Below, piece after piece: positions 5,349-26,600 of a stretch of 64,000 nt of DNA. This stretch comes from an uncultured delta proteobacterium. Lineage in GTDB: Bacteria > Desulfobacterota > Binatia > HRBIN30 > BPIQ01. Positions within the stretch are counted from its first letter, which is position 1; every line of letters begins with the position of its first letter. The notes below the pieces were generated by a model, which was not told where the DNA came from, ran no database searches, and saw only the letters and a list, made by a program, of their open reading frames with translations. The stretch is taken from positions 480,001 to 544,000 of the forward strand of contig CAVXGR010000012.1 of the NCBI GenBank assembly GCA_963761335.1. Reading direction: 5' to 3'. A program made the translations under genes and the position numbers.

Positions 5349-5365
5349 GAGACGCGGTGGCGGCG

Positions 5366-5548
5366 TGTTGAGTGTTGGGTGTTGTTGAGGTGCTGGGTGC
5401 TGGGCGTTGGGTGTTGGGGGAAGAGAAAGAGGCAGGGGTCCCGTGGTCGGGGAGACGCCACGACCCATCCAGCACGCCCTAAAACAGCCAACACCCAGCA
5501 CCTCAACACCCAGCGCCTCAGCACCTCAGCGCGTCGGCGCCTCAGCAG
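5366..5548. repeat. Degenerate heptamer tandem repeats in inverted arrangement between convergent genes
   Basis: Left arm of GTGTTGG/GTGCTGG-like units, right arm of CCAACAC/CCAGCAC/TCAGCAC-like units. Confidence 0.8.
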
Positions 5549-5561
5549 TACGGCTTGCCGT

Positions 5562-6530: not shown

Positions 6531-6765
6531 GGCGTTTCCCTCCACCCGGGTTTTGCTCTCGGCCTTAGCGCGGGGCGCGAGAAACGGTCAACAGGGAATC
6601 GCCGACGACGAAGAGAGCTACTCGATGGCTCGGTTGCCTTGAGCGCTTTCTCGGTTGTCCGGATTCAGTGTTCTCGGGTTCCAGCGTCTTCGGGGCAATT
6701 CCAATGTGAACAAACGAAGGAATTGCATTTCCCCCAAGAATCGTCTCAAGATACGGACCATTCCG

Positions 6766-7935: not shown

Positions 7936-7996
7936 CCCGAGAACGGTGCGACCGCCGGTATTATCCTTCCGGCCGCGCCTGGGTTATGCTCGGCAA

Positions 7997-8395
7997 ATGA
8001 GCGGACGGGCCGCAGACTGGCTCCGGCAGGGCGAGGCCGACCTGGAGCACGCCGGCGAGGCGCTGCGTGTCGGCCATCACGAGTGGGCGTGCTTCGCAGC
8101 GCAGCAGGCCGCGGAAAAGGCCGCCAAGGCGGCGCATGCCGCCCTCGGTCAGGAAGCCTGGGGCCATGTGGTCACCGAGCTCCTCGAGGCGCTGCGCACA
8201 CACGAGCCTGCCATCGACGACGCCCTGCTCGACCGCGCTCGCAGCCTCGACAAGCTGTACATCCCGACGCGCTACCCAAACGGATTGGCGGGCGGGGCTC
8301 CGGCAGATTTCTACACGCGCGCTGAAGCGGAGCGCGCCATCAGAGACGCGGAGGCGGTCCTTGCGCTGTGTCGAAGAGTGCTATCGCGGGCGTAA
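7997..8395 (+). CDS. HEPN domain protein
   Basis: WLRQGEADL...WACFAAQQAAEKAAKA...WGH...LDKLYIPTRYP. Confidence 0.88.
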   Translation: MSGRAADWLRQGEADLEHAGEALRVGHHEWACFAAQQAAEKAAKAAHAALGQEAWGHVVTELLEALRTHEPAIDDALLDRARSLDKLYIPTRYPNGLAGGAPADFYTRAEAERAIRDAEAVLALCRRVLSRA

Positions 8396-8747
8396 CGTCC
8401 GCGTCTTCCGCCTCGATCGCGAAGCGATCCTGCGCCGCTTGCGCCAGCGAGCCCGCGCCCTGTTGGAGAACGAGGCGGACGTGGCGGAGGTGCGCCTCTT
8501 CGGGTCCCTGGCGCGCGGCGATGCACACCCCGGTAGCGACGCCGACATCTTCATTGTCCTGCGCGACGGCGCAGCACCCTTCATCGATCGCATTCCCCGG
8601 CTGGCGCGCTACTTCGGCGGTATCGGCATTGGATGTGACGTGATCGCGTACACCGAGTCCGAATGGGCCGATATCGCCAGGAGTGGCGACCGTTTTTCGC
8701 GTGCCGTCCTCGACGAGGGCATCGTGCTGGCGGAGCGGGACCGGTGA
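8361..8747 (+). CDS. Minimal nucleotidyltransferase (MNT), partner of HEPN
   Basis: LFGSLARGDAHPGSDADIFIV; start uncertain (TTG 8361); overlaps HEPN. Confidence 0.85.
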   Translation: MRCVEECYRGRNVRVFRLDREAILRRLRQRARALLENEADVAEVRLFGSLARGDAHPGSDADIFIVLRDGAAPFIDRIPRLARYFGGIGIGCDVIAYTESEWADIARSGDRFSRAVLDEGIVLAERDR

Positions 8748-8809: not shown

Positions 8810-11800
8810 CTACCACGTATCGACGCAGGGCCGCTTTTTTCCTCGCCGCGACTGCGGCGGCGGCAGGGATCGCAACAGAGAGACTACCCATTGCCGCGAG
8901 TCGGCCGGGTCGATGACGTCGTCGATCTCGAAGTGGCTGGCGCTGTTGAGCGCCTTGCCGTGCTCGTAGGCGCGCTCCACCATGTGCTCGAAGAGCTGGC
9001 GGCGCTGTAGCGGATCCTCCACCGCCTCGAGCTCCTTGCGGAAGCCGAGCTTCACGGCGCCCTCGAGACCCATGCCCCCGAACTCACCGGTGGGCCAGGA
9101 GACGGTGAACAGCGGCGCCTTGTGACTGCCGCCGCCCATCGCCTGCGCTCCGAGCCCGTACGACTTGCGCAGCACGATGGTGAAGAAGGGCACGCTCAGG
9201 TTGGCGCCGTTGACGAACATGCGGCAGCAGTGGCGCACCAGTGCCGTCCTCTCCGCCTCCGGGCCGACCATGATCCCGGGGGTGTCGCAGAGGAAGAGGA
9301 TGGGAATGTCGAAGGCGTCGCAGAGCTGCATGAAGCGGCTGGCCTTGTCGGCGGCGGCGGCATCGATGGCGCCGGAGAGGTGCTTCGGATTGTTGGCGAT
9401 CACGCCGAGCGGCCGGCCCTCGAGGCGGATGAAAGCGGTCACCATCCCCAGACCGAAGTGACGGCGCAGCTCCAGCATCGAGCCGCTGTCCGCGAGCGTC
9501 TCGATCACCGAGCCTATCTCGTACACACGCAGCCGCTTCTCCGGAATGATGCCGCGCAGCCGCCGCTGGTCGGCGCACTCCCAGAAGGCGATCGGCCCCT
9601 GGAAGTAGGACAGGTACTGCTTGGCGACACGCACCGCCGCGACCTCGTCGGCGACGGCGATGTCGACCACGCCGTTCGGCACCTGCACGTCCATCGGGCC
9701 GACGTCCTCCGGCCGGAAGACGCCGAGCCCGCCGCCCTCGATCATCGCCGGACCGCCCATGCCGATATTGGAGTTCTCGGTGGCGATCACCACGTCGCAG
9801 CAGCCGAGCAACGCCGCGTTGCCGGCAAAGCAGCGGCCCGAGTTGATTCCCACCAGCGGCACCAGACCGCTCAGCCGTCCGAAGAGATGAAAGGCCATGC
9901 AGTCGAGGCCGGCCACGCCGGGCGCATCGGTGTCGCCGGGACGCCCGCCGCCGCCCTCGGTGAAGAAGATCACCGGAGCGCGCAGCCGCTCGGCGAGCTC
10001 GAACATGCGGTCTTTCTTGCGGTGGTTCTGAAACCCCTGCGTCCCGGCGAGAACCGTGTAGTCGTACGACATCACCACGCAGCGGGCACCGGGCTCGTCG
10101 AAGAGATCGCCATTGACGCTGCCGACGCCGGCGACCAGCCCATCGGCCGGGGTGCGCTGGATCAGATCCTCGACGGAGCGCCGCTGCCGCTGCGCCGCGA
10201 TCGCCAGGCTGCCGTACTCGACGAAGCTGCCCGGGTCGCAGAGATCGGCGACGTTTTCCCGCGCCGTGCGCTGCCCCGTCCTGCGGCGGCGGGCCACCGC
10301 CTCGGGGCGCTCGGCGTCGCCGGTGAGCGCATGGCGACGGCGCACCTCTTCGAGATCGGCGCGGGCGGCGTCGAGATCGAGGGGCGCCGCTGTCGATACG
10401 TCCTCCTCCGGTGCTTCGCCGAGCTGAATGACCACCAGCACCTGCCCCTCCGGCACCGTATCACCCTGCGCCACTACCAGATGGCGCACCACGCCGCTCG
10501 CCGGTGCGTGCACGACGTGCTCCATCTTCATGGCGTTCATCACCAGCAGCGCCTGGCCCTGGCGGACCGTCTCGCCCTCGGCGATGTCGATGCTGACGAT
10601 CGTCCCCTGCATGGACGAGTGCACCGCCACTGCGTCCTCGAGGCCCGCCAGATCCAGCCCCGGAGCGACCTGCGGCCGCGCCTCGGGCGGGGCGGACGAC
10701 GGCCCCCTCCCCTCACCTTTCCCATAGGCGAGCACCGCCAGCGGATCGGTCGCATCGACAGTCGCGCCGGTGCGCGCGGCGGCCGGGACCTCGGCGACCG
10801 CCGCCGCCAGCTCGGCGGCGTGCTCCTCGACGAAGGCCGTGTGAATGCGATTGGCCGTGAAGTCCGGCTGCTCCAGCAGGCGCGTCAGAAACGGCGCATT
10901 GGTCGCCACGCCGTCCACCCGCAGCTCGGCGAGCGCCCGTCGCGCTCGAGCCACGGCATCCGCAAAGCTCGGGGAGCTCGAGTGCGCCACCAGCTTGATG
11001 AGCAGCGCATCGAAGTGGGGGTTGGTCTGGTAGCCGGGATGAGCAGCGGTATCGACGCGCACCCCCGGACCGCTGGGCAGCCGCAGTGCGCCGATCCTCC
11101 CGCTGGCGGGCCGCGGCGCGCCGTCGGCGCCGAAGGTCTCGGCGTTGATTCGCAGCTGAATCGCGAAGCCGCGCGGCGCCGGCATGCGTGCCGGCTCGAG
11201 GCCGACGGCAGCCAGTGAAGCGCCGGAGGCGAGCTCCAGCTGAACGCGCACCAGGTCGACGCCGGTCACCTCCTCGGTGACGGTGTGCTCGACCTGCAGC
11301 CGGGGGTTCGCCTCGATGAAGGCGTACGCCGGCATCGCCGCTCCGCCTTGCCCCCACGGGCCGTGCGTGTCGATCGCCTCGGCGTCGACGAGAAACTCGA
11401 ATGTTCCGACATTGCGATAGCCGATCTCCTCCGCCATGCGCACCGCGTGGGCCGTGAGCCGCGCCCGCAGCTCGGGAGACAGGCTCGGGCAGGGCGCGAT
11501 CTCCACGAGCTTCTGATGGCGCCGCTGTAGGCTGCACTCGCGTTCGCCGAGGTGGACGACGGCGCCGGAACCGTCGCCGACGATCTGCACCTCGACGTGC
11601 CGCGCCCGCGGCATGAGCTGCTCGACGTAGAGGTCGCCGTTGCCGAATGCCTGCATCGCCTCGGAGCGACAGCGGGCGTAGGCATCGGCGATCTCGCCGG
11701 CTCGATGCACGACGCGCATGCCCCGTCCGCCGCCGCCGGCGACAGCCTTGATGGCAACGGCGGCGTCCTCGTCGAGCGAGGACAGAAACTCGATGGCCTC

Positions 11801-12217
11801 CTCGATGGTCACCGCTGCGGCGGAGCCGCGCAGCACGGGGACGCCGCAGCGTTCCGCCAGCGCCCGCGCCCGCGTCTTGTCACCGAGGATCTCCAGGGTC
11901 TCGGGTCGCGGGCCGACGAAGGCGATCCCCTCGGCCTCCACCCGGCGCGCCAGCGCGGCGCTCTCGCTGAGAAAGCCGTAGCCGGGATGCAGCGCGTCGC
12001 AGCCGCAGCTCCTGGCGGCGCCGAGCAGCTGCTCGGCATCGAGATAGGCCGCCGCGCCGGTGCCGCGCAGCGGCCGCGCCTCGCCAGCGAGGTGGGCGTG
12101 CAGCGCCCCAGCATCGTCCTCCGAATAGACTGCCACGCTGCGCATCCCGAGCTCGGCCGCACCCCGCATGATGCGCACGGCGATCTCTCCGCGGTTGGCG
12201 ACGAGAAGCTTCTTCAT
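8810..12217 (-). CDS. Single-chain biotin-dependent acyl-CoA carboxylase (BC-BCCP-CT)
   Basis: KLLVANRGEIA, HPGYGFLSE, RECSLQRRHQK, NPRLQVEH, biotin site AMKME, C-terminal carboxyltransferase domain. Confidence 0.93.
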   Translation of the reverse strand: MKKLLVANRGEIAVRIMRGAAELGMRSVAVYSEDDAGALHAHLAGEARPLRGTGAAAYLDAEQLLGAARSCGCDALHPGYGFLSESAALARRVEAEGIAFVGPRPETLEILGDKTRARALAERCGVPVLRGSAAAVTIEEAIEFLSSLDEDAAVAIKAVAGGGGRGMRVVHRAGEIADAYARCRSEAMQAFGNGDLYVEQLMPRARHVEVQIVGDGSGAVVHLGERECSLQRRHQKLVEIAPCPSLSPELRARLTAHAVRMAEEIGYRNVGTFEFLVDAEAIDTHGPWGQGGAAMPAYAFIEANPRLQVEHTVTEEVTGVDLVRVQLELASGASLAAVGLEPARMPAPRGFAIQLRINAETFGADGAPRPASGRIGALRLPSGPGVRVDTAAHPGYQTNPHFDALLIKLVAHSSSPSFADAVARARRALAELRVDGVATNAPFLTRLLEQPDFTANRIHTAFVEEHAAELAAAVAEVPAAARTGATVDATDPLAVLAYGKGEGRGPSSAPPEARPQVAPGLDLAGLEDAVAVHSSMQGTIVSIDIAEGETVRQGQALLVMNAMKMEHVVHAPASGVVRHLVVAQGDTVPEGQVLVVIQLGEAPEEDVSTAAPLDLDAARADLEEVRRRHALTGDAERPEAVARRRRTGQRTARENVADLCDPGSFVEYGSLAIAAQRQRRSVEDLIQRTPADGLVAGVGSVNGDLFDEPGARCVVMSYDYTVLAGTQGFQNHRKKDRMFELAERLRAPVIFFTEGGGGRPGDTDAPGVAGLDCMAFHLFGRLSGLVPLVGINSGRCFAGNAALLGCCDVVIATENSNIGMGGPAMIEGGGLGVFRPEDVGPMDVQVPNGVVDIAVADEVAAVRVAKQYLSYFQGPIAFWECADQRRLRGIIPEKRLRVYEIGSVIETLADSGSMLELRRHFGLGMVTAFIRLEGRPLGVIANNPKHLSGAIDAAAADKASRFMQLCDAFDIPILFLCDTPGIMVGPEAERTALVRHCCRMFVNGANLSVPFFTIVLRKSYGLGAQAMGGGSHKAPLFTVSWPTGEFGGMGLEGAVKLGFRKELEAVEDPLQRRQLFEHMVERAYEHGKALNSASHFEIDDVIDPADSRQWVVSLLRSLPPPQSRRGKKRPCVDTW

Positions 12218-15125: not shown

Positions 15126-16088
15126 GTGATGCATCCGGTGCGCAACACCCTGGACGACCTCGCCGTCTACGAGGGACGGCCAGTGGAAGAGCTTTTTCCG
15201 CCCCCCAAGCGCGTGCCGGATATGAGCGTGAGCGAGCGCTGGCGGCTCCCCGGTCTGATCAGCGAGGACATCCGCTTCCGCTCCCTCTACGTCCCACTCG
15301 AGCCCAAGTTTCGCCGGCGCTACCGGGAGCACTACCGCGAAGCGCACGACGTATGCGCGCGGCGGATCCGCCCGGCGGCGGCGCGCCGGCGCCCTCGCCT
15401 TCTGTACCTGCATGGGTACATGCAACCGGAAACCTATATCGAGGAGCTGGCGCTGCTGGCGACGATGGCGCTGCAGCTGAACGTGGAGGTCATCCAGATG
15501 CAGTTCCCCTACCACGGGCGCCGCACGCCGCGCGGCTCGTTCTTCAGCGGGGAGCTGTACTGGACGGCCGACCTGGTGCGCAGCTTCGAGGCCCTGCGCC
15601 AGACACTGCTCGACGCGCGCACCCTCTTGAGCTGCCTCCTCCGAGACGACGACCGCCCCGTGGGGATCTCGGGACTCAGCCTCGGCGGAGCGCTGGCGCT
15701 ATGCCTCACCTGCCTGGAAGGGAACTTCGCGTTCTCGGTGCCGCTGATCGCGCACATGGACCTGGAGGCCCTGGTCGCCGACGCGCCGGTTCTCGGCGGC
15801 ATGCGGCGCGATCTTCGCTCTTTCGGCTGGGGGCGCCAGGAGTTCGGCAAATTCGTCGCTGCCGTAGGCTGGCACGAGCTGCGTCCCAAGCTGCCCGCGG
15901 AGCGGATTCTGCTGATCGCCGCCTCGAACGACCGCTTCTTCGATCCGCGCCTGGTCGAGCGCCTGTGGAAGAGCTGGGGCAAGCCGGCGATCCGCTGGTA
16001 CCCCACCAGTCACATGGGCTTCATCGCGCACCTCCCGGAGGCACTGCGCCTGATGCGCCAGTTCATCGACCGACAGGCCGCCGAATGA
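15126..16088 (+). CDS. Alpha/beta hydrolase
   Basis: YLHGY, nucleophile GLSLGG, downstream Asp (NDRFF) and His (TSHMG). Confidence 0.82.
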   Translation: MMHPVRNTLDDLAVYEGRPVEELFPPPKRVPDMSVSERWRLPGLISEDIRFRSLYVPLEPKFRRRYREHYREAHDVCARRIRPAAARRRPRLLYLHGYMQPETYIEELALLATMALQLNVEVIQMQFPYHGRRTPRGSFFSGELYWTADLVRSFEALRQTLLDARTLLSCLLRDDDRPVGISGLSLGGALALCLTCLEGNFAFSVPLIAHMDLEALVADAPVLGGMRRDLRSFGWGRQEFGKFVAAVGWHELRPKLPAERILLIAASNDRFFDPRLVERLWKSWGKPAIRWYPTSHMGFIAHLPEALRLMRQFIDRQAAE

Positions 16089-16413
16089 AGCTCCCGTTTC
16101 CCGTTGCCTTCGCCTTCGGGAGCGGTGGCATCGACGACCTCGTTCGGGTCACCGAGCCGCGCATCGGCGCTCGGCTATGTCCCCGGCGACGCGCAGACCG
16201 ATGTCTCGTTGCTCTCCGTCCGATTCTCGTGCTGCCAAACGGGACAGTTCATACGCCCATCTCGAGCACGAGTCGGGCAGCTCGGCCGCCCGCACCCATC
16301 AGCGTGAGCGCTTCGTGCGCGCGCCGGAGATACGTTTCGCACTGCCCCGCCCGGCGTGCTTGCGAAGTCGTTCCGGAATGGATAGGGGGAGTGGAGATTC
16401 GGGCGCAACGCGC

Positions 16414-16674
16414 ATGGGGCACACGATCGACCGCAATCGGATCACCTGGGACGAGATCGATGGGGAGACCCTCATCATCGATACCGAGAGCGGCTACTAT
16501 TTCTCGCTCGACGGCGTCGGCAGTATCGTCTGGAGCATGCTGACGGCAGGCGCCGGCGAGGACGCCATCGTCGACAGGATCATCGCTGAGTACGACGTCG
16601 ATGGGTCGACGGTGCGAGAGGACGTGTACTCACTCGTCCAATCGTTGCAACGCGAGCAGCTGGTCGGTCGGTGA
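16414..16674 (+). CDS. PqqD-family RiPP recognition element (stand-alone RRE)
   Basis: 86 aa: WDEIDGETLIIDTESGYYFSLDGVGSIVWSML...IIAEYDVD...VREDVYSLVQSLQREQLV. Confidence 0.9.
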   Translation: MGHTIDRNRITWDEIDGETLIIDTESGYYFSLDGVGSIVWSMLTAGAGEDAIVDRIIAEYDVDGSTVREDVYSLVQSLQREQLVGR

Positions 16675-16693
16675 ACGAAGGAGGAGCTGTCTG

Positions 16694-16849
16694 ATGAAGA
16701 AGCCGACGATGAATCGCGACGGAAATGCTGAGCGCGACACCCCTCAGAGCGACACGGCGCACCCGCTCACGATGCCGAAGAAGGTCTATCAGAAACCGGT
16801 GCTGTCGAAACACGAGCAACTGCACGGCATCGGGCTCGGCTCGCCCTGA
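16694..16849 (+). CDS. Putative RiPP precursor peptide (51 aa)
   Basis: MKKPTMNRDGNAERDTPQSDTAHPLTMPKKVYQKPVLSKHEQLHGIGLGSP; YxxPxL motif; AAGGAGG upstream; sits between two RRE-encoding genes. Confidence 0.8.
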   Translation: MKKPTMNRDGNAERDTPQSDTAHPLTMPKKVYQKPVLSKHEQLHGIGLGSP

Positions 16850-16917
16850 GCCCATCGCGTCCGCTTCGCTCCGCCTCGGCAACCCGGGCGGAGGTCCACA
16901 ACCTGCCGATCGGTACG

Positions 16918-18087
16918 GTGCCGATAAGCATCGTCATTGCGGTCCACCCCGGTCATCACCGCACCTCGTTCCTCGGACGTTGCCTGCAGGCGGTGGTGGA
17001 GCAGGTGAATCCGCCGCAGTGCCTCGAAGTGATCCTGGTCGGCGACGGCGTGCAACTCGACCCGTCGCTGGTGCCGGACGGCCTGGCGGCCCGCCGACAT
17101 TCGTTCTCCACCCCGGTCGGCGCCAGCGCGGCGCGCAATCAGGGGCTGCGCATGGCAACCGGCGAATGGGTGGCGTTTCTCGATGCCGACTGTTGGCCGC
17201 GACCGGACTGGCTGGAACGTCTGTACGCCGGTCTGGTTCGCGAAGGCGCCGCCGGCTGCGGCGGCAAGACCCTGCAGTCTCACGATCAACGCGCCCACGA
17301 CGATCGGCTGTCCGGGACCCGCGCCGTGTTGCCGTGCGCCGTGCTGAACAACGTGCTCTTCCGGCGCTCCGTGCTGGACGAGATCGGCGGCTTCGATGAG
17401 CGCCTGGTCGTCTACGCGGAAGAGCCCGACCTGTGCTGGCGGATTTGCCTGAAGGGGCATCGGATCGCCTTCGCGCCCGACGCGATCGTCGAGCACCAGA
17501 CCCACAAGACGACGCGCAAGTTCGTCTTCTACGGGCGGGCACTGCGGCAGCTGGAGTGCAAGTTCGGGCCGCTGCTCGATTTCTCCCGCCGCGAGGAGCT
17601 GCGCTGGATCGCCGAGTCGTATCGGCGCGCGCATGCCGGTGATGGCCCGCTGAGCCTGGCCCAGCGCGCCCGGATGTTGGCCATCGGTTGGGGATACGCT
17701 GGGCGCTGGGCGGCCGACCGGCTCGGGCGTCCGCCCCGGGTGCAAGCGCTGGACCTGTCCGAGCGCACGCTGCAGCAGCAGCATCTGATCCCGGCACTGG
17801 CCGTGGCGGTCGAGGGCCACAAGGTGACCAGACCCAATCACGTGCTCTGGTGGAAGGTAGAGGGTGGATGCTCCGTCCTCGACCTGGCGCATCGGACGCG
17901 CTTCGCGCTCACCGGTGCCGCCGCCGATATCTGGGTCGGCGTGATGAGCGGCCTCGGGGCGGACGAGCTGCGCGGACGACTGGCCGCCGACTTCGAGGTT
18001 CGCCCGGAGACGCTGGCCGCGGACATCGACGAGTTCCTGGGGGCGATGCTGCGCCAGGGCCTGCTGGCGCGCGCGGAGAGCGCATGA
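16918..18087 (+). CDS. Family 2 glycosyltransferase fused to C-terminal PqqD/RRE domain
   Basis: GASAARNQGL, FLDADC, GGFDERL..EEPDLCWR; C-terminal VLDLAHRTRFALTGAAADIW...LAADFEV...LAADIDEFLGAMLRQGLL. Confidence 0.85.
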   Translation: MPISIVIAVHPGHHRTSFLGRCLQAVVEQVNPPQCLEVILVGDGVQLDPSLVPDGLAARRHSFSTPVGASAARNQGLRMATGEWVAFLDADCWPRPDWLERLYAGLVREGAAGCGGKTLQSHDQRAHDDRLSGTRAVLPCAVLNNVLFRRSVLDEIGGFDERLVVYAEEPDLCWRICLKGHRIAFAPDAIVEHQTHKTTRKFVFYGRALRQLECKFGPLLDFSRREELRWIAESYRRAHAGDGPLSLAQRARMLAIGWGYAGRWAADRLGRPPRVQALDLSERTLQQQHLIPALAVAVEGHKVTRPNHVLWWKVEGGCSVLDLAHRTRFALTGAAADIWVGVMSGLGADELRGRLAADFEVRPETLAADIDEFLGAMLRQGLLARAESA

Positions 18088-18659
18088 CCACCGAGTCGCG
18101 AGGCGCCGCCGCCCGGCGGCTGCGCGACACCTTCGCAGCGCACAAAGGAGAGAGCTGGCTGCGCTTTCAGGGCCGTAGCATGCTGCCGATGCTGCGCGAT
18201 GGCGATCTGCTGCGGGTTCGCCATGGCCCGCCATCCGCGATCGGCTGCGGCGCCATCGTGGTGTTCAACGACGGCGACTCGACCATCGTGCACCGCTTGC
18301 TCTATCGCCGGGGACGCGGAGCGGTTCTGGTGACCAAGGGGGACAATGCGTGGCGGATCGATCGGCCGCTCGGTCCCGAGCAGGTGATCGGCGCCGTATG
18401 CGAGATCCGGCGCGGTGCGCACCGCATTCCAGTCGACCGCGGTGAGTGGGGGCGGGTATCGCGCGGCATCGCGCTGGCGTCGATGCTCGAGGGGCTCGCG
18501 TACGCGGGCGCGGTTGCCATCCGCCGGCGGTGCCTTCCGCACCCCCTGGTCGGTCGCCTCGGCGAAGCGCGCCTTCTGGCGGCCGCCGGACGGTGCCGGC
18601 GCGCCATCCTCGATCGGGTGTTGCGCGTCACGGGCGCGACCGGCGCGGCCGCGGAATGA
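18084..18659 (+). CDS. S24/S26-family peptidase
   Basis: GRSMLPMLRDGD, IVHRL, TKGDNA...D..VIGAV; ATGA coupling with upstream gene. Confidence 0.85.
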   Translation: MTTESRGAAARRLRDTFAAHKGESWLRFQGRSMLPMLRDGDLLRVRHGPPSAIGCGAIVVFNDGDSTIVHRLLYRRGRGAVLVTKGDNAWRIDRPLGPEQVIGAVCEIRRGAHRIPVDRGEWGRVSRGIALASMLEGLAYAGAVAIRRRCLPHPLVGRLGEARLLAAAGRCRRAILDRVLRVTGATGAAAE

Positions 18660-18669
18660 GCCGTAGACC

Positions 18670-19698
18670 GTGACGGCAGGCGAATACTTCGAGGCCGTGC
18701 AGGCAGCCTATGCGGACGCCGAGCGGCGCGCCGGCGGGCCGGTGGAGCGCGTGTTTCGCGTCGCCGGGCATCCGCTCCGCCTGCGCTTCGCCGGGCCCGC
18801 CATGGTTTCGGACGCCACCGCCGCCTTCGACCATCTGCCGTCGTCCGGCGAGCGTGCCGAATTCTCCGTGTGTCTGTTCGATAGCGCCTCGACCGGAAGC
18901 GAGCTGCCGCCAATGCCGCGCTCGAGCGGGCCGCACGACGTGCGCGGCGATATTCCCGAGCTGTGCGACGAACGGTTTATCGTCAGCTACTTGCGTTGGA
19001 ACGGGGTGCTCGGCTTGCTCGACCGAAGCCGACGGCGGGCGCTCTTCTGGATTCGTGCCGCGAGCGATTTCCCGTTCAATGAACGCGGCTCGCCACTGCT
19101 GATGAGCCTCCAGGGCTGGCTGGCCGGCCACGATCTGCAGTTGATGCACGCCGGTGCCGTCGGCGGCGCCAACGGGGGCGTGCTGCTCTGCGGCCGTGGC
19201 GGTGCGGGGAAGTCGACCACCGCGATCGCCTGTCTCGTCGCCGGACTCTCGTATGTGGCGGACGACTACTGCGTGCTCGCCGCGCGGCCGCGGCCGGTGG
19301 CCCACAGCCTGTACAACTCCGGCAAGCTGCACTGCGCCGGACTGCACCGGTTCCCGGAGCTGTCCATCGGCGCGGCGTCTCGCGGCGGCGACGACAAGGC
19401 GCTCTTCTTCCTTCACGCACTCTACCCGGAGCGCATGGCCACCAGCGTGCCGATCCGGGCGCTGGTGCTTCCCGTCATCCACGACGGGGCCGACTGCACG
19501 CTCGAGCCCGTGCCGCGCGTCGAGGCGTTGCGCGCCATGGTGAGCAGCACCATCGCCCAGATTCCCGGCGCCAACGGGGGGGTGCTGACCGCCGGCGCGG
19601 CGTTCGTGCGGCAGCTACCCTGCTACCAACTGCGGATCGGCTCCGACCCGACGCGCATCGCCGCGCGCATTGAGGGCCTGCTGCGCGGGGGCATATGA
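18670..19698 (+). CDS. HPr kinase-like P-loop kinase
   Basis: LMHAGAV...GVLLCGRGGAGKSTT...LSYVADD. Confidence 0.85.
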   Translation: MTAGEYFEAVQAAYADAERRAGGPVERVFRVAGHPLRLRFAGPAMVSDATAAFDHLPSSGERAEFSVCLFDSASTGSELPPMPRSSGPHDVRGDIPELCDERFIVSYLRWNGVLGLLDRSRRRALFWIRAASDFPFNERGSPLLMSLQGWLAGHDLQLMHAGAVGGANGGVLLCGRGGAGKSTTAIACLVAGLSYVADDYCVLAARPRPVAHSLYNSGKLHCAGLHRFPELSIGAASRGGDDKALFFLHALYPERMATSVPIRALVLPVIHDGADCTLEPVPRVEALRAMVSSTIAQIPGANGGVLTAGAAFVRQLPCYQLRIGSDPTRIAARIEGLLRGGI

Positions 19699-20813
19699 AG
19701 ATCCTCATGGCCACCGAGCGGTTCCTCCCCGAGGTCGGCGGCGTCGAGGTGTTCACCGCTCGACTCGCGTCGGCGCTGAAGGAACGCGGCCACGAAATCG
19801 CTGTCGTCACCTCGCGCAGCGGACTCACCGAATGCGAGGAGGACCGCCAGGGAGCTGTGCCGGTGTACCGCCTGCCGTTCGAGGCCAGCCTGCGCGCGCG
19901 CGACTACAGACGCGTCATCGCCCTGCGCCGGCGACTCGCCGCGCTCAAGGAGAACCTGCGTCCGGACGTCGTGCACCTCAACACGTCGGGGGCGAGCCTG
20001 CTGTTCCATCTGCTCACTCGCCGAACCGCGCCTGCTCCCCTCGTCCTCACCGTCCACTGGCTGCCCAATTCGGAGAGCGTGGCCGTGGTCTGCGCCCAGG
20101 CGCTCGCCGCGGCCGACTGGATCGTGGGGGTAACGCGTGGATGCCTGGACGAGGCCCTGCTGCTCAATCCGACCATCGCCAACCGCTCATCTGTCGTCTA
20201 CAACAGTCTGCCGCCCATCACTCTCTCGCCCACACCGCTTCGCTTCGATCCGCCGAAGCTGCTCTGTCTCGGCCGGCTCGAGGCGCAGAAGGGTTTTGAC
20301 GTCGCGCTACACGCCCTGGCCGAGGTGTGCCGGCACTTCCCGACGGCGCGGCTCACGGTCGCCGGCGATGGCACCCAGCGTCCGGCCCTCGAAAGCCTTG
20401 CCATCGAGCTCGGCCTGACGGCCGCCGTCCGCTTCATGGGTTGGGTCGCGCCCGACGACGTCCCTCAGCTGATCAACGAGCACACCGTGGTCGTGATGCC
20501 ATCGCGTTACGAGCCTTTTGGTCTGGTGGCGCTGCAGGCGGCGCAGATGTGCCGGCCGCTGGTGGCATCGCGCATCGCGGGACTGTCGGAAGTCGTCCGC
20601 GACGGCGATACCGGCCTGCTCTGCGACGCCAACGACCCCGACGCATTCGCCGCCGCGATCAACGTCCTGCTTCGGCAACCAGCCGCCGCCGCGCACATGG
20701 GCCAGCGGTCACGCAACTACGTCGAGACGGCCTTCCGCTGGGACCAGCAGGTGAGCGCCTATGAGACCCTCTTCCGCAGGGTCCACGCCCAAGCCAGCGG
20801 TCCGTACGCCTGA
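19695..20813 (+). CDS. Family 4 glycosyltransferase
   Basis: GGVE, GRLEAQKG, PSRYEPFGLVALQA, GLSEVVRDGDTG. Confidence 0.92.
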   Translation: MKILMATERFLPEVGGVEVFTARLASALKERGHEIAVVTSRSGLTECEEDRQGAVPVYRLPFEASLRARDYRRVIALRRRLAALKENLRPDVVHLNTSGASLLFHLLTRRTAPAPLVLTVHWLPNSESVAVVCAQALAAADWIVGVTRGCLDEALLLNPTIANRSSVVYNSLPPITLSPTPLRFDPPKLLCLGRLEAQKGFDVALHALAEVCRHFPTARLTVAGDGTQRPALESLAIELGLTAAVRFMGWVAPDDVPQLINEHTVVVMPSRYEPFGLVALQAAQMCRPLVASRIAGLSEVVRDGDTGLLCDANDPDAFAAAINVLLRQPAAAAHMGQRSRNYVETAFRWDQQVSAYETLFRRVHAQASGPYA

Positions 20814-20987
20814 GCGCCTCTGGCCAGGAAGCGCACGATGAAGACCTGGCGCTGGTGAGCAACGAGCGCCTCTCGGACGCGCACGGAGTGCGCCGGATCT
20901 GGCGATGGCGATAGCGCAATAGACCCCTTCTCCGTGCAGGTCCGGTATACCCGCGCGCCACTGGTCTTCCCACCCTGCTAAATGGCC

Positions 20988-21414
20988 GGGCGCCGCGTGC
21001 ACGCGCGCACGGCGCTCGCGCAGCAGCGTCTCGTACGCCACTTCCTGCGTCAGTGGGTGCTTGAATGTGTACTCGGCCACTGGGTAGAGCGCCTGCTCGT
21101 AGACGAACTCGGCCTGTGCCAGGGTGCGCAGCGCGGCGGGCACGTCGGTCGCGGCCGCGTCTCGCGGCGCGACGTCGGCGAGCACCTGCGTCAGCACCGG
21201 CTCGCTGAGCTCCTTGCCGATCACCGCAGCGGTCTGCAGCACCTGCTTCTCGCGCTCTGCCAATCGATCGATGCGTGCCGCCAACACGGCGTGCACGCTG
21301 GCGGGGACGTCGAGCGTCTTCGAGCTCGAACTGCCGGCGCAGCACGCGCAGCGACACGCGGCCGTTCTCCTGCAGGTGGTTCCGCGCTTCGCTGATGATC
21401 TCGAGCAGCCTCAT
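20988..21414 (-). pseudogene. Chimeric remnant of cyclase/ATPase/TPR paralog
   Basis: MRLLEIISEARNHLQENGRVSLRVLRRQFELED joined out of frame to VPASVHAVLAARIDRL...YTFKHPLTQEVAY, then truncated. Confidence 0.75.
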
Positions 21415-24400
21415 GACGTCGATTCCGACAACAGGAGGGAAATGCGTTGCGCCTGCAACGGCGCGCCGATCTGTTCGTAAAGTTGATGAGATTCGCGCAG
21501 CAACTGCACGCGCGTCGCGTCATCGCCGAGGAGGGCTGCCAGCTCGGCGCGCCACTCGCAGAGCGCGGGCGCGAGTGTCTTCGCTCCCGTGCGTTCGATC
21601 AGTGCGGCTGCGCTGGCAAGGGCAGCTTCCGCGGCATCGCGGGCCGCCGCTCCGTCGCGGCGGAGGAGGGCGCGCGCCATGATGCCGTGGGCCTCGGCTT
21701 CGGCGTGGCCACCCAGCGAGCGTCGGCAGAGCGCGATCGCCTCCTCGGCCGCCGCCAGCGCGGCCGACAGATCACCGGCTTGCAGCAGGGCCCAGGCCAA
21801 AAGCATCGCGGAATCGCCCGCAGCGTGCTTTTCCACACGCCCGCAGATCTCCAGGGCGGCACGCGCCGGCGCGATGGCGTCGGCCGCCCGCCCCGCCGCG
21901 AGGTGTGCGCGGGCGAAGGCAAACTGCGCGTACCCGGCCAGCGACAACGGCTCCCCCAGCTTGCGGCCGATCTCTTCGAGCTGCCGCGCGCTGGTGAGTG
22001 CCCGGTCTGCGTCATGAGCGTTGTGGTAGGCCGCGGCCGCCACGACCATGGCGTACCCGATCAACTCCGGTGTGCCGTCCTCCTCGAGCAGACGGCGGGT
22101 GCGTGCGAGCGCTTCGAGCCCCTCCGGCAAGCGGCCCACCCACGTGAGGCAATAGCTGCGCCAGAACGAGAGCAGGGAATAGGGATTGAAGCCAATGATC
22201 CATTCCCCGGAAGGAATGTGGCGCGGAAAGCGAGCAAGCGCTTCCTCCGCCATCTGGAGTGCCTCGGGGAATCGTGCGGCAAAGCTGAGCGCGTCGACGA
22301 GGTAGACACAGGCATTGGCCTGCATCCCAACGTCATCGATCTCGAGTGCCACGCGCCGGTTCTCGATTGCCACCTCGAGATACTCCGCCACGTCGCCGTC
22401 GCCACAGCGCGCGCGGCCATAGACCATCGACAGGCTCAGATGGGCGCGGCGATCGCCAATCGCGTTGGCGAGGGTCTGCCCTTCCTCCAAGAGGGCCTTC
22501 GCCTCGTCGAGCCCCGTGCCGACCCGCCAGCTCCCGTTCAGCAGCTGCATACAGGCAACGATGCCGAGGGCGGCTGCCTCGTGGTCGTCCGGTAGCTGAC
22601 GCAAGAGCTTGCGCACTTGGCCCCAGTGGTGAGTTGCGGCGGCAAAGTCGGTGCGCCCCACCCACTCGGCCGCGCGCCGGTGCCAGCGCGCCCCGCTGAG
22701 CGCCTCGCCGGCCTCCTCCCAGTGGTGCGCCAGCAGCGCCGCGCGTTCGTCGAGATGGTCAGGGTCGTGCAGCTCGATCGCCCGCGCCACGGCGGCGTGC
22801 ACCTGACGGCGACGCTCCTTGAGCTGGCTGCCGAGCGCCACTTCCTGGGTGAGCGGATGCTTGAAGGCGTACTCAACGACCGGATAGATCGCCTGCTCGT
22901 GGATGAACTCGGCACGGCGCAGAGCCGCGAGTGCGGCCTTCAGCTCTTCGGTGGGTAGCTCCGCCACTGCCGCCAGCAACGGCTCGGGGAAGTCCTTGCC
23001 GATCACCGACGCCACTTGCAGCAGCCGCTTCTCGCGCTCCGGCAGCCGGTCGATGCGCGCCGCCAGTACCGCCTGCACGGTGGCCGGCACCGTGAGCTCC
23101 TCGATCGGCGTCACCAGGCGATACGCACCGCGTTCGCCTTCGAGATGCCCCGACTCGATGAGTGTCTGCGCTACCTCCTCGGTGAAGAACGGGTTGCCGC
23201 CGGTACGCGCGTGGATCGGCGCCGTCAGGGCGGCCAGGCTCGGGTCGGTGCCGAGCAGATCCACCAGCAACTCGCCGATCGCGTCGCGCCCGAGCGGCGT
23301 CAGCGGGATCTGCCGGTACCACGACTTCTGCATCCAGTCGGCGCGGTGCTCGGGGCGGAAGTTGAGCAGCAGGAGATTGCGGCTGCCGGCGCGCGCGTCG
23401 ACCATGTGCTCGAGGAACTCGCCGCTCGCATCGTCGAGCCAGTGCAGGTCCTCGACCATCGTCACCGTCGGCTGCTCCTCGCTGACGCTCTGGATCACCT
23501 GACGCATCACGGCGATGATCTGGCGCTGGCGCGCCTCGGGGTCGAGCCGCGGCGCCGGGCGCTGCGAATCGGCGACGCCGAGGAAATCGAAGAGCAGCGG
23601 CAGCGCGTCGGCAAAGCTGTTGTCGAGCAGCACCATGCGCCCGGCGATCTTCTCGCGCGCGCTGCGATCGTCGTCCTCGAGCGTGATGCCGTAGTAGGCG
23701 CGGAACACCTCGAGGATGGGTAGGAAGGGGATGTTGCGGCCGTGGGCGACGGCGCGGCCCTCGTAGACGTGCATGCCGCGGGCGCGGCAGCGCTCGAGGA
23801 ACTCGAAGCACAGGCGACTCTTGCCGGTGCCGGCATCGGCCACGATCCCCACCACCTGGCCGTTGCCCGCCGCAGTCTGCTCGAGCGCATCCTCGAGCGT
23901 GCGCAGATCGGCGGCGCGCCCGACGAAGCGCGAGAGGCCGCGGGCGCGTGAGATGTCGAAGCGCGAACGCGCGGCGCCGATGCCGACGAGGCGGTGGACG
24001 CGCACCGGCTCCGCGACGCCCTTGACGCGAAAGTCGCCCAGATCCTCCAGCGCGAAGTAGCCGCCGGCGAGCGCCGCCGTCGCCGCCGTAAGGTAACACG
24101 AGTCCGGCGAGGCGAGCGCTTCCATCCGCTGTGCCAGACCCACCGTGTGGCCCTGCGCCGTGTAGTCCATGCGCAGGTCATCGCCGATCTTGCCGACCAC
24201 GACCGCGCCCGAGTTGATGCCCATGCGGGTCGAGAAGCCGACGCCGTGCTCGCGCTTCACCTCGGTGGCGTAGCGGGCGATCTCGTCGCGCAGATGCAGC
24301 GCCGCGTAGCAGGCGCGCTGGGCGTGATCCTCGTGGGCGATCGGCGCGCCGAAGAGCGCCATGATCCCGTCGCCGGTGTACTGGTTCAGGGTGCCCTCGA

Positions 24401-24839
24401 AGCGGTGCACGCCTTCGGTGAGGATCTGAAAGAAGCGGTCGAGGATCGTGTGCCACGCTTCCGGGTCGAGCTGTTCAGCGAGTTCCATCGACCCTTTCAC
24501 GTCGGCGAACAGAACGGTGACCTGCTTGCGCTCGCCTTCGAGAGCGGACTTCGATTGCAGGATTTTGTCGGCGAGGTGTTTGGGGGTGTAGGCGCGAGGA
24601 CTGCTGCCAAGTCGAGAGTCGACAGTCGAGAGTCGAGAGTTTTCGACCTTCCCATTTTTGACTGTAGACTGTTGACTGTCGACTAGATTCACGCCGCACT
24701 CGCCGCAGAACTTCGCACCGGAGGGCAGGTTGCTACCGCAGCTCTCGCAGCGCCGGGCGATGGGCGTTCCGCACTCGAGGCAGAACTTCACCCGCTCGGG
24801 GTTGACGTTGCCGCAACTTGCGCAGTTCATGGGAGTCAC
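21411..24839 (-). CDS. Double zinc ribbon - class III adenylate/guanylate cyclase - ATPase - TPR protein (intact)
   Basis: Four CxxC; ERKQVTVLFADVKGS; TGDG; Walker A ADAGTGKSRL; EDLHWLD; GGNPFF; helical-repeat C-terminus. Confidence 0.92.
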   Translation of the reverse strand: MTPMNCASCGNVNPERVKFCLECGTPIARRCESCGSNLPSGAKFCGECGVNLVDSQQSTVKNGKVENSRLSTVDSRLGSSPRAYTPKHLADKILQSKSALEGERKQVTVLFADVKGSMELAEQLDPEAWHTILDRFFQILTEGVHRFEGTLNQYTGDGIMALFGAPIAHEDHAQRACYAALHLRDEIARYATEVKREHGVGFSTRMGINSGAVVVGKIGDDLRMDYTAQGHTVGLAQRMEALASPDSCYLTAATAALAGGYFALEDLGDFRVKGVAEPVRVHRLVGIGAARSRFDISRARGLSRFVGRAADLRTLEDALEQTAAGNGQVVGIVADAGTGKSRLCFEFLERCRARGMHVYEGRAVAHGRNIPFLPILEVFRAYYGITLEDDDRSAREKIAGRMVLLDNSFADALPLLFDFLGVADSQRPAPRLDPEARQRQIIAVMRQVIQSVSEEQPTVTMVEDLHWLDDASGEFLEHMVDARAGSRNLLLLNFRPEHRADWMQKSWYRQIPLTPLGRDAIGELLVDLLGTDPSLAALTAPIHARTGGNPFFTEEVAQTLIESGHLEGERGAYRLVTPIEELTVPATVQAVLAARIDRLPEREKRLLQVASVIGKDFPEPLLAAVAELPTEELKAALAALRRAEFIHEQAIYPVVEYAFKHPLTQEVALGSQLKERRRQVHAAVARAIELHDPDHLDERAALLAHHWEEAGEALSGARWHRRAAEWVGRTDFAAATHHWGQVRKLLRQLPDDHEAAALGIVACMQLLNGSWRVGTGLDEAKALLEEGQTLANAIGDRRAHLSLSMVYGRARCGDGDVAEYLEVAIENRRVALEIDDVGMQANACVYLVDALSFAARFPEALQMAEEALARFPRHIPSGEWIIGFNPYSLLSFWRSYCLTWVGRLPEGLEALARTRRLLEEDGTPELIGYAMVVAAAAYHNAHDADRALTSARQLEEIGRKLGEPLSLAGYAQFAFARAHLAAGRAADAIAPARAALEICGRVEKHAAGDSAMLLAWALLQAGDLSAALAAAEEAIALCRRSLGGHAEAEAHGIMARALLRRDGAAARDAAEAALASAAALIERTGAKTLAPALCEWRAELAALLGDDATRVQLLRESHQLYEQIGAPLQAQRISLLLSESTS
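24611..24685. repeat. Heptamer-repeat hairpin within coding linker
   Basis: gtcgaga/gtcgaca units facing tgactgt/agactgt/cgact units; encodes VDSQQSTV...SRLSTVDSRL. Confidence 0.75.
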
Positions 24840-25042
24840 TCGAGCCCGGCCTGTCGCAGGGCGGCGTTTCGGCGCGCGTCGATCTCGGGGCGCGAGACCC
24901 CGATGCCGCGCTGAAACAGCTCCAGCGACACACGCGGCTCGACGCGGCGCGCTTCGCTGGCGGCTCCTGGCTTGATCCCGAGCCGATCACAGAGGCTCTT
25001 GGGGATGGTGACCTGACCTTTCTCCGAGACGATCGCCTTCAT
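24836..25042 (-). pseudogene. AbrB/MazE antitoxin N-terminus fused to an unrelated C-terminal fragment
   Basis: MKAIVSEKGQVTIPKSLCDRLGIKPG followed by ...RRNAALRQAGLE, which resembles the tail of TPR-type cyclases. Confidence 0.65.
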
Positions 25043-25051
25043 ACTCGCGCT

Positions 25052-25078
25052 GTAGGAATTCCTTACTTCTCGAGTCAA
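25052..25078 (-). promoter_or_regulatory. Putative -35 box and palindromic operator of AbrB module
   Basis: TTGACT followed by quasi-palindrome GTAAGGAATTCCTAC just upstream of ATG 25042. Confidence 0.45.
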
Positions 25079-25159
25079 TTTCGGGGCCTCCCTGGTGGTG
25101 AGCTTGTGATGGCACCGCAAGACTGGGTGTGTCGCTGGACAGGCCCCCCGAAGCTCCAC

Positions 25160-25765
25160 TCACTCGACCGGGCACGGATCGAGGCGCAGGGAGACGGCGG
25201 TTTCCCTGGCCTCGCGGGGGTACAGACCGATTGCAGCGGCGCCCCGGGCCACCGCGTACTTCTCGACCTTGAGTGCGTGGATCGCCTTGACGGTCGCGCG
25301 GTCTTCGTAAAGCACCGGCACCACGCACCGGGTCTCCCCATTCCGGAGGAGCTGAAGGCGCGCTCCATCCAGAGAGTGCTCGACCGCCTTCGAACGCGCC
25401 ATCCCCACCCACTCACCGTCTTCGCGGTCGACGATCCAGAGGCGTAGCTCCGCCGGTTCGCCGGCGCTATCGGTGGCATAAAGCGACACCACTTCTTCGA
25501 GCTCGGCCATCGTGGCGTAAAGCCCGAAGAAGAGCACCACGGGGCTGGCCGCCAGTGCCAGCCAGCAGAGCCCGCGTGGCGTCGCGGGCCACACCAGCAC
25601 ACCGCCGAGCAGCAGCGCACCCAGGCCACCGAACAGGTTCGCGCCGCGGGGCATCGGGTAAGGGCCCTCGTGGTGGAAGCGAACTGCGAAAACGGCGACG
25701 CCGAGGGCAAGGAGCCCGCAGCCAACTATGGTTTGGACCTTGGAAGACGAGCGGGGTTCCATCAC
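25160..25765 (-). CDS. Membrane-anchored hypothetical protein
   Basis: Three hydrophobic segments followed by soluble domain (LRLWIVDREDGEWV...KVEKY); codon pattern fits genome. Confidence 0.65.
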   Translation of the reverse strand: MMEPRSSSKVQTIVGCGLLALGVAVFAVRFHHEGPYPMPRGANLFGGLGALLLGGVLVWPATPRGLCWLALAASPVVLFFGLYATMAELEEVVSLYATDSAGEPAELRLWIVDREDGEWVGMARSKAVEHSLDGARLQLLRNGETRCVVPVLYEDRATVKAIHALKVEKYAVARGAAAIGLYPREARETAVSLRLDPCPVE

Positions 25766-25911
25766 GGGGCTCCTCCAGAGAGACAGTTCATGGTGCCAGT
25801 GTCGTGTCCGATGATTGCGGGCGCAGCTCCCCGAAGCGCGCGAGGGCCTCGTCCAGCGCGTTCATCTCGAACAGCTCGATACGCGTGAGGCGTCCCTGCG
25901 CGACCAGGGCC

Positions 25912-26346
25912 TCATTCGATCACGATGGCGGTCAAACCGAGAGCGCCCGCTCCGCTCCGCTGATGCGTGTCGTGGGTGTGAACCTCGGTAAAGCCTTGCT
26001 GGAGGGCCGTCACCAGATGCAGACAATCAGCCGTGCGCAGGAAGACGTTCGCCGGCAACGTGGTCAAGGTCCGAACCACCTGTTCGATGATACGGCTGTC
26101 GAGAGGAACCCAGGTCCAGTAGCCGACTGCCTCGTCTGTCGAGAATTGGCTCACGACAGTCGCAAACTCATCTTGGCTCCACTTCCGCTCGCGCAATTGC
26201 CGGTGAAAGACGGCGACCAGCTCCGCTCTCGCGAGCTCCGAGAGCAGCACCTGATCTTCGGCGTCGAGGCGGGCACGGACAGCGTCGGATTCCGACTCCC
26301 GCGCGTAATACCTTGCGAGAGTCGACGTGTCGCAGAAGAGCATCGT
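25912..26346 (-). CDS. VapC-like PIN domain toxin
   Basis: FCDTSTLARYY..E, SELARAEL, LRTADCLHL, THD. Confidence 0.88.
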   Translation of the reverse strand, partial: TMLFCDTSTLARYYARESESDAVRARLDAEDQVLLSELARAELVAVFHRQLRERKWSQDEFATVVSQFSTDEAVGYWTWVPLDSRIIEQVVRTLTTLPANVFLRTADCLHLVTALQQGFTEVHTHDTHQRSGAGALGLTAIVIE

Positions 26347-26600
26347 CAGCGGTCGGAGCGTACGGCGTCGAGACTCTCCAGGATGTCCGACGCCTTCCGC
26401 TGCGTGAGAAAGGTGACGTACTCCGGCAGGAGCGTCCGCTGCCGCCGTCGGGTCGTCGGCAAGTTTGGCGGAACGAGTGCGGCGACCACCTTGCCGCGAT
26501 CGGTGACCGGCAGCGGGGTTCGTGCCCTCCCGGCCCGGCGAACGTATTCGCCGGTCCTGGCGTGCAGCTCTTTGATGGTGATCGAACCCTTTTTGGCCAT
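26346..26600 (-). CDS. Phd/YefM-family antitoxin
   Basis: ITIKELHARTGEYVRRA...VTDRGKVVAALVP; directly upstream of PIN gene. Confidence 0.85.
   Translation of the reverse strand: MAKKGSITIKELHARTGEYVRRAGRARTPLPVTDRGKVVAALVPPNLPTTRRRQRTLLPEYVTFLTQRKASDILESLDAVRSDR

Follow-up and report, generated by a model that had tools for sequence, protein, structure and literature searches.

The 64-kb window analyzed here (positions 480,001 to 544,000 of contig CAVXGR010000012.1, assembly GCA_963761335.1, from an uncultured delta proteobacterium of the Desulfobacterota lineage Binatia) contains a six-gene operon that probably encodes a peptide-tailoring pathway guided by RRE domains, the leader-recognition elements of RiPPs (peptides that are made by the ribosome and modified after translation). 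The pathway would be of the linear polyphosphorylated peptide (LPP) type, in a variant that includes glycosyltransferases. LPPs of Bacillota, made by LppA/K/B/S/D/N, were published in May 2026 (Popov et al., Nat Commun 2026; PMC13381572). The first-pass annotation had proposed a distinct class of cyclase-less, RRE-dependent pathway; the logic of RRE, S26 peptidase and kinase without a cyclase stands, whereas the claim to a separate class does not, because that logic already has experimental precedent in the LPP system as described there. The operon is a divergent glycosyltransferase-bearing variant of the LPP family and not a wholly distinct class. What is new is the glycosyltransferase pair with its second RRE, the host outside Bacillota, the very short predicted core, and the relationship between split and fused forms of precursor and RRE.

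The operon occupies 16414-20813 on the + strand (4.4 kb; positions refer to the window unless a comparison locus, labeled by an L-number, is named) and encodes a PqqD-family discrete RRE, a 51-aa peptide, a family 2 glycosyltransferase fused to an RRE (GT2-RRE), an S26 peptidase, an HprK-like kinase and a family 4 glycosyltransferase (GT4). Stop and start codons overlap by 4 bases at the GT2/S26 and kinase/GT4 junctions, the remaining intergenic gaps measure 10-68 bases, and third codon position GC is high in the frame of every gene. Open reading frame (ORF), Pfam and NCBIfam scans recovered all six co-oriented, tightly spaced genes with the domains first assigned to them. The discrete RRE (16414-16674, +; 86 aa), presumed to be the leader-binding adaptor, matches PF05402 with an E-value of 8.1e-16 (58.6 bits vs a cut-off of 23.4), and does not reach the cut-offs of the lasso PqqD chaperone models; its best solved relatives are TbiB1 (5v1u, E 2.4e-13), PbaB1 (9x90, E 6.8e-8) and LppB (9x8z, E 1.8e-5). 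The GT2 (16918-18087, +) matches PF00535 (E 7.1e-19), has a DAD motif at residues 89-91 and carries a C-terminal RRE (approximately residues 305-383, nucleotides ~17830-18066), in which residues 328-383 match PF05402 (E 1.4e-6, 28.9 bits vs 23.4). Its top NCBIfam match is the mycofactocin glycosyltransferase MftF (TIGR03965), at 124.8 bits and below the cut-off of 280.

The peptidase (18084-18659, +; 191 aa) is a soluble enzyme of the endoplasmic reticulum/archaeal S26 type. It matches PF00717 (E 1.2e-6), its top NCBIfam match is the archaeal-type signal peptidase I model TIGR02228 (E 2.4e-9, 37.3 bits, below the cut-off of 51.85), and it aligns to SEC11A/C across the GSMEP, IVHR and KGDN segments. 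Across an alignment of 42 sequences H70, R71, D87 and D93 never vary and S32 is kept in at least 90%; a conserved Lys of the LexA/LepB kind is lacking. By hydropathy the protein has no membrane helix at its N-terminus, and a single stretch (residues 128-146) is borderline hydrophobic. The kinase (18670-19698, +; 342 aa) is assigned to the HprK-like/ScmC P-loop family by its conserved residues and fold: GxxGxGKST, H160, D198-D199, K219 and K243 are invariant in 23 diverse sequences, the structure model has a predicted local distance difference test score (pLDDT) of 91.2, and the top solved folds are ATP-dependent phosphoenolpyruvate (PEP) carboxykinases (2pc9, E 4.9e-10, TMq 0.61). ATP-dependent PEP carboxykinases and the HprK C-terminal domain belong to one superfamily. 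The relatives of the kinase carry the new Pfam family PF27840 ('ScmC'). The GT4 (19695-20813, +; 372 aa) matches PF00534 (E 4.4e-39). All six gene products appear to be cytoplasmic, with peripheral anchoring at the most.

The precursor gene (16694-16849, +) follows a Shine-Dalgarno sequence, AAGGAGGAG (16678-16686, +), read from the sequence 7 nt 5' of its ATG. The 51-aa product consists of a variable polar N-terminus followed by KKVYQKPVLSKHEQLHGIGLGSP. It has no family match in the Pfam and NCBIfam scans, and a Protein Data Bank search with it gave 0 matches at E-values up to 10; relatives occur in loci L070, L017 and L065. As judged from its sequence, with the strong ribosome-binding site and the relatives found in a syntenic operon and as a PqqD tail, the 51-aa ORF is a real gene. 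Residues 32-37, YQKPVL (16787-16804, +), form a YxxPxL-type predicted RRE-binding motif according to sequence and alignment. A six-frame translation of the genome (12.5 million residues) contains the pattern Y..P.L 612 times, and since ~0.002 occurrences are expected per 51-aa ORF, YQKPVL is not a chance occurrence. The conserved part of the peptide comprises the motif and the residues downstream of it, with Y32 and P35 invariant in 6 of 6 aligned sequences, whereas the N-termini of the window and L070 peptides have nothing but prolines in common. Downstream of YQKPVL the window peptide has only 14 more residues. Over residues 29-50 the two peptide copies of L070 are 73-76% identical to the window peptide, ending ...KKAYRKPQLAKYDQLHGIGLGS and ...KKAYSKPVLSKYEQVYGIGLGYG; the L017 tail is 44% identical.

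Comparison with the LPP precursors gives this short C-terminal tail a register. The LPP precursors are described as 35-200 aa long with the motif YxxPxVLxHQxIxFETxxS, which numbers from the Tyr as Y1, P4, V6, H9, I12, F14-E15-T16 and x17-x18-S19 (PMC13381572). The window peptide, with 51 aa in range, reads Y1, P4, L6, H9, L12, G14-I15-G16 and L17-G18-S19-P20, so that the two agree in Y1, P4, H9 and S19 and in having hydrophobic residues at positions 6 and 12; Ser50 occupies position 19. In the published system LppK expressed in a heterologous host adds up to four phosphates to core Ser3, and LppS cuts after T-1, requires LppB and handles unphosphorylated peptide poorly (PMC13381572). The spacing from the Tyr to the cleavage site (16/17), predicted in the window peptide, and to the putative acceptor Ser (19) is shared, as is the YxxP anchor. 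A small residue (Gly or Ala) precedes the predicted cut in the window, L070, L017 and L086, where the predicted core spans 3-7 residues, and position 19 is a hydroxyl residue (Ser or Tyr) in the two peptides of L070, in the L017 tail and in the two tails of L086. From this handful of sequences we infer cleavage of GIG/LGSP between G47 and L48, releasing a predicted four-residue core L48-G49-S50-P51 (cleavage site and core at 16832-16846, +), and modification of Ser50, because the register equals that of the LPP motif and recurs in the Clostridia-type locus L092 described below. The suggestion, made at first reading, that the product is a mini-peptide gains support from this alignment. Two precursor pairs (L070:120-466 and L086:9728-10694, - strand), from two unrelated genomes, differ at position 19 by Ser versus Tyr.

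The enzymes compare in the same way. The core set reported for LPPs includes the discrete RRE LppB, the HprK-like kinase LppK, the nucleoside triphosphate (NTP)-transferase LppN, for which no detectable effect is reported, and the MsbA-like exporter LppD; LppS is described as an SpI-like archaeal-type signal peptidase with catalytic S29, H68 and D93 (PMC13381572). The window operon shares with this published set a discrete RRE (a PF05402 PqqD protein in one operon with the S26 gene), a soluble archaeal/ER-type S26 peptidase with a Ser/His/Asp set (S32, H70, D87/D93), a predicted HprK-like kinase, with conserved P-loop, DD, H and K residues, a fold like that of the PEP carboxykinase/HprK superfamily and family scores below every cut-off, and the lack of a cyclase. 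It differs in several respects. Neither a PF14907 NTP-transferase nor an ABC exporter was found in Pfam scans of window ORFs between 2 and 31 kb, so the LppN and MsbA-like LppD components of the core set are missing there. Two glycosyltransferases are integral to the operon, one with a second RRE; in the LPP domain table Glycos_transf_2 sums to 19 across the cluster-1 neighborhoods (PMC13381572). Finally, the host is a diderm with high GC (window 64-72%, host about 69%), whereas LPPs are described as restricted to Bacillota (PMC13381572); the diderm assignment follows from the presence of LpxC, which among 14 control genomes matches only the four Gram-negative ones. According to Supplementary Data 1 of that study, the minor clusters of its network include S26 homologues from Acidobacteriota, Myxococcota, Chloroflexota and Planctomycetota, some with 'other' RREs; its main text sets the minor clusters aside (PMC13381572).

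Relatives of the peptide in a Planctomycetia genome are fused to the RRE itself. A single 131-aa ORF at L017:13951-14346 joins PqqD to the motif and tail, ending ...KALYKKPTMKRYEQLHEIGVGS; a search of the protein collection with this fusion returned 1 match (itself) among 11 candidates, small ORFs being seldom called. Another contig of the same genome (L086) encodes two PqqD-tail fusions, which end ...YVAPALNKRGMFRMMAAGSQYGG and ...YVAAALNKRGMFRMMAAGYNFNY, the latter partly masked; an S26 gene (35% identical) and a GT2 gene come immediately after them. Because L017 and L086 fuse the motif and tail to PqqD, the N-terminal stretch of the split peptide can be read as a linker and the C-terminal end as the common functional part; on this sequence comparison the window peptide is the split form of an RRE-precursor fusion, and its variable N-terminus is the putative linker. 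An AlphaFold2 model of the L017 fusion, built from 13 sequences and run without a control, has a mean pLDDT of 85.7, with ALYKKPTMKR at pLDDT 95 including a strand at residues 118-121, the linker before the motif at ~60 and the last ten residues at 63/44. A tail that docks in cis and leaves its end free would be expected to give such values.

The register was also found in a Clostridia-type genome. In the phylum to which a Lachnospiraceae genome belongs, the S26 profile matched 81 of 301 genomes, and 12 loci were fetched. One of these (L092) encodes PqqD, a precursor, S26 and a second precursor on one strand. FET occupies positions 14-16 and Ser position 19 in each of the two precursors, MKQYVKPMIINETEIQFETLVSCPL... 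and MKEYSKPEITHEEEIEFETAISNCGW; the core of the second comprises 7 residues. A Lachnospiraceae locus (L031) was tried as a comparator and discarded, its kinase match being distant (23%) and its called ORFs including no PqqD or S26; L052 yielded no usable calls either.

The gene order itself is conserved. The kinase has more than 437 relatives, the closest of which (60-84% identical) come from metagenomes, and a metagenome scan returned 14 loci, five with close relatives (62-75% identity, one of them a 71-residue fragment). L070 repeats the window order, with the end of PqqD, two peptide genes, GT2-RRE (59%), S26 (51%), kinase (63%) and GT4 (69%); L073 has GT2-RRE, S26 and kinase, L071 and L072 have kinase then GT4, and L083 is too short to show gene order. 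S26 and GT2-RRE thus lie upstream of the kinase in both contigs that reach that side, GT4 directly follows the kinase in all three close-relative contigs that reach downstream (L070, L071, L072), and the peptide is present in the single contig that reaches its position (L070). The GT2-RRE is 59-60% identical in L070 and L073 over residues 3-383.

Within the host's phylum the kinase family is patchily distributed, with matches at E <= 1e-20 in 5 of 401 genomes, and the soluble S26 family is more common (88 of 401 genomes, E <= 1e-10). In a library of 1.84 billion proteins, S26 representatives number 3779 at E <= 1e-3, 151 at 1e-10 and 2 at 1e-30. S26 relatives often neighbor RRE and kinase genes: at 15 of the 29 S26 loci retrieved from the phylum, a PqqD and/or HprK-like gene lies within ~1.5 kb. 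The candidate precursors beside those S26 genes have YxKPx leaders and Cys-rich cores of ~20-35 residues; by sequence these are other subtypes, and they were not used to support the Ser19 register. Two S26 relatives have unusual architectures: P0136 (562 aa) is an S26 domain fused to a long C-terminal part, and in P0122 (424 aa) a GT2-RRE C-terminus runs into an S26 domain 61% identical to that of the window, which may be a fusion or a gene-call artefact.

In the pathway we propose, the 51-aa peptide would use YQKPVL to bind the discrete PqqD and, probably, the RRE domain of the GT2 as well, and its flexible C-terminal end would be kept at a fixed distance from this anchor. The HprK/ScmC-type kinase would phosphorylate Ser50 (position 19, counting from the Tyr), the GT4 and the GT2, the latter tethered by its RRE, would attach one or more sugars, and the S26 peptidase, with the RRE presenting the substrate, would cut after G47 to give decorated LGSP and a 47-residue leader. 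Gene content fits the division of labor put forward in the first-pass annotation, in which the RRE binds the leader, the S26 enzyme removes it, and kinase and glycosyltransferases modify the peptide. An extension that we offer tentatively, as possible rather than probable, is that the RRE acts as a ruler, with residue 19 modified and bond 16/17 cut; the product would be LGS or LGSP bearing phosphate and sugars, the fused RRE-precursor relatives would be self-presenting, single-turnover scaffolds, and the Ser/Tyr pairs of L070 and L086 would lead to two related products. If such a ruler operates, the product would be a peptide-derived small molecule and not a peptide antibiotic; the fused relatives, if confirmed, would represent an unusual biosynthetic arrangement. 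More broadly, the operon suggests that the RRE, S26 and kinase logic operates in a diderm soil bacterium, beyond Bacillota, hard-wired here to two glycosyltransferases, one with its own predicted leader-binding domain. A compact operon of six genes in 4.4 kb is a tractable system for asking whether phosphorylation precedes glycosylation and whether a four-residue product is made.

Several observations weigh against an LPP-type pathway. Gene set, motifs, synteny and homology were observed directly, whereas the enzymology is borrowed from LppK, LppS and LppB, so that binding, cleavage, phosphorylation and glycosylation at the window operon are inferred from homology and register. The window RRE is nearer to lasso B1 proteins, TbiB1 in particular, than to LppB. 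The kinase scores below every curated family cut-off (Hpr_kinase_C at E 3.3e-4; the HPr-rel-A models TIGR04352 and TIGR04355 at 28.1 and 22.5 bits vs equivalog cut-offs of 200), and its fold neighbors are PEP carboxykinases, not HprK itself. Known relatives of the peptide number only 5, and a search of the protein collection returned the query itself (1 of 1 candidates), a result of little weight as small ORFs are seldom called. GIG replaces FET before the cut, and FET is reported to matter for LppS cleavage; the predicted window core has 4 residues versus 45 aa in the published system, and a core of 3-4 residues has no counterpart among the LPPs described there. L070b and one L086 tail have Tyr at position 19, which conflicts with the reported inactivity of LppK on S3Y and S3T variants (PMC13381572). 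The L086 cluster (genome G401) has S26 and GT2 and no kinase match in 19 kb, and the second L017 cluster has no S26 in the stretch examined. Finally, the tail of the L017 fusion was modeled by a network that has seen RRE-leader complexes.

Two other readings retain most of these elements and assign them different roles. Under a scaffold-peptide route, the peptide or RRE-tail fusion would be a reusable handle on whose last residues a phospho-sugar or oligosaccharide is built and then clipped off by S26, much as mycofactocin and PQQ come from the C-termini of their precursors; such a product may have a role in the envelope or in polysaccharide biology and not as an antimicrobial peptide. The 3-7-residue core in the window, L070, L017 and L086, the sub-threshold MftF match of the GT2, the position of related cassettes amid GT2/GT4, Wzy_C, sulfotransferase and PF14907 genes, the embedding of LPP clusters in capsule loci (as reported in PMC13381572) and the lack of an exporter in the operon all accord with such a route. 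Yet most of its steps are common to the LPP-type pathway, from which it differs mainly in what counts as the product, the Pfam scan found no lipid-carrier, flippase or polymerase gene in the operon, and there is no sign of a glycan beyond one or two sugars; we consider it doubtful. It is unlikely that the precursor is of a follower type, in which the C-terminal motif serves only recognition, the Ser/Thr/Pro-rich N-terminal 30 residues are modified and S26 cuts elsewhere. The hypervariable part of a RiPP precursor is usually the core, and the N-termini of the window, L070a, L070b and L065 peptides do differ strongly and contain Ser/Thr, but the equivalent stretch in L017 and L086 is a mere linker between RRE domain and motif, and the Y1-to-Ser19 register equals the LPP site mapped experimentally (PMC13381572). 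The linker of L017 was modeled at low confidence, although the C-terminal end was likewise.

The remaining readings deny the operon an LPP-type pathway altogether. Similarity of the window RRE to lasso B1 proteins (TbiB1, E 2.4e-13), a lasso-like leader motif and the decoration of paeninodin-type lasso peptides by HprK-like kinases (PMC13381572) could be taken to indicate a decayed or split lasso cluster, with cyclase and B2 protease lost or encoded elsewhere. This is highly improbable. The same cyclase-less order occurs in L070 and L073 at 51-69% protein identity, and the 14 residues after the motif could not accommodate both the end of a leader and a lasso core with its 7-9-residue ring and tail. 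The absence of a cyclase, B2 protease, radical SAM enzyme or YcaO noted at first reading was borne out by genome-wide and window scans: the genome has five strong Asn_synthase matches (contigs C11, C5 and C18) and two weak ones (C12 and C24), the nearest being the weak C12 match 83 kb upstream of the operon, and none of the 7 is close to the operon or to a PqqD match, of which the genome has 13; the sole Transglut_core3 match is weak and partial (29.8 bits, 53 residues) and ~66 kb downstream; and neither radical SAM nor YcaO turned up among the ORFs scanned with Pfam from 2 to 31 kb of the window. The cluster thus lacks the cyclase and B2 protease of a lasso system, and the degraded-lasso alternative raised with the original proposal is not supported. 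Equally, GT2 and GT4 genes are abundant in the host genome, and the two here might serve ordinary polysaccharide synthesis beside an untranslated small ORF. Such a chance neighborhood is very unlikely, given that the GT2 is itself fused to an RRE, that start and stop codons overlap by 4 bases, that the gene order recurs in L070-L073, that the small ORF has a strong Shine-Dalgarno sequence and high third-position GC, and that a second set of GT2-RRE, PqqD and peptide occurs on contig C9 of the same genome. Both readings were rejected on these grounds.

Turning from rivals to known systems, kinase-decorated lasso systems (paeninodin, pseudomycoidin) resemble the window operon in their lasso-type RRE and in a leader motif like YxxPxL, and they too have an HprK-like kinase, which in those systems acts on a C-terminal Ser (PMC13381572); in pseudomycoidin hexoses are reported to be linked through the phosphate on phospho-Ser (PMC11912497). 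The window operon differs in that cyclase and B2 protease are absent, its peptide leaves no space for a lasso core, and true GT2 and GT4 enzymes take the place of the PsmN-type nucleotidyltransferase. As is proposed for the window GT2, mycofactocin MftF and the glycocin GT2 enzymes act on ribosomal-peptide-derived substrates, but the MftF score lies below its cut-off and the operon lacks a radical SAM gene of the MftC type. Fusions of an RRE to PF00535 glycosyltransferases have been listed (PMC12710340) but not studied. The sole link to the SynChlorMet system (ScmC/ScmD) is the PF27840 label on the kinase relatives: the ScmD model TIGR04248 scores 22 bits vs 100, and the operon has no radical SAM gene.

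Most kinase relatives, from many phyla, belong to a different cassette composed of a PqqD with a C-terminal tail, kinase, one or more GT2s and PF14907, and these kinases are 27-43% identical to that of the window. Their tail, fused to the RRE, reads [FY]xxPxLxK[YF][TS]DMxxLLLLDPIHEVDxxGWP, with Asp at position 19; PqqD genes with this conserved tail lie upstream of the kinase in L009, L011, L012, L014-L018, L020-L022 and L024. The Thr/Ser after K[YF] aligns with the Asp/Glu of the split peptides. This common cassette resembles the window operon in its kinase family, in the order of RRE then [FY]xxPxLxK[YF] motif and in the GT2 genes directly after, and differs in that the motif is fused to the RRE, the tail is longer, position 19 is Asp and PF14907 is present. 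No S26 was found beside the common cassettes, by comparison with the window S26 and by Pfam scans of five loci.

The host genome itself has three further cassettes of PqqD with tail, HprK-like kinase, GT2/GT4 and PF14907, on contigs C4 (L066, ~1000-8500), C12 near 808 kb (L067, 6025-10296) and C16 (L068, ~4600-7230); one of them includes a 1145-aa GT4-PF14907 fusion. On contig C9 (L065, 5827-9130) a PqqD 44% identical to that of the window is followed by a 54-aa peptide ending ...PVYEKPRLRRYDQIDQVKPYGPTEI, and opposite this pair, among GT4 and GH123-like genes, lies a GT2 with a C-terminal PqqD domain; neither kinase nor S26 was detected in L065. The L065 set is duplicated on the small contig C28.

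A PADLOC search gave 0 matches among 7 proteins, Rfam gave 0 matches on 15500-21600, and a promoter and terminator scan returned 0 promoter-like sites and a sole terminator-like site inside the GT4 gene, within shuffle expectation. The operon is flanked by genes for an alpha/beta hydrolase and a methyltransferase-like protein and, on the opposite strand, by an adenylate cyclase/AAA_16 protein. The last of these, convergent with the operon end (21411-24839, -), has 1142 aa and combines a double zinc ribbon with adenylate/guanylate cyclase and AAA_16 domains. Beyond it lie toxin-antitoxin-like genes (24836-26600, -), which encode a PIN-domain protein with an antitoxin of the Phd/YefM type, plus an ORF weakly resembling MazE. 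Upstream, at 8810-12217 (-), biotin carboxylase, biotin carrier and carboxyltransferase domains are joined in one 1135-aa protein.

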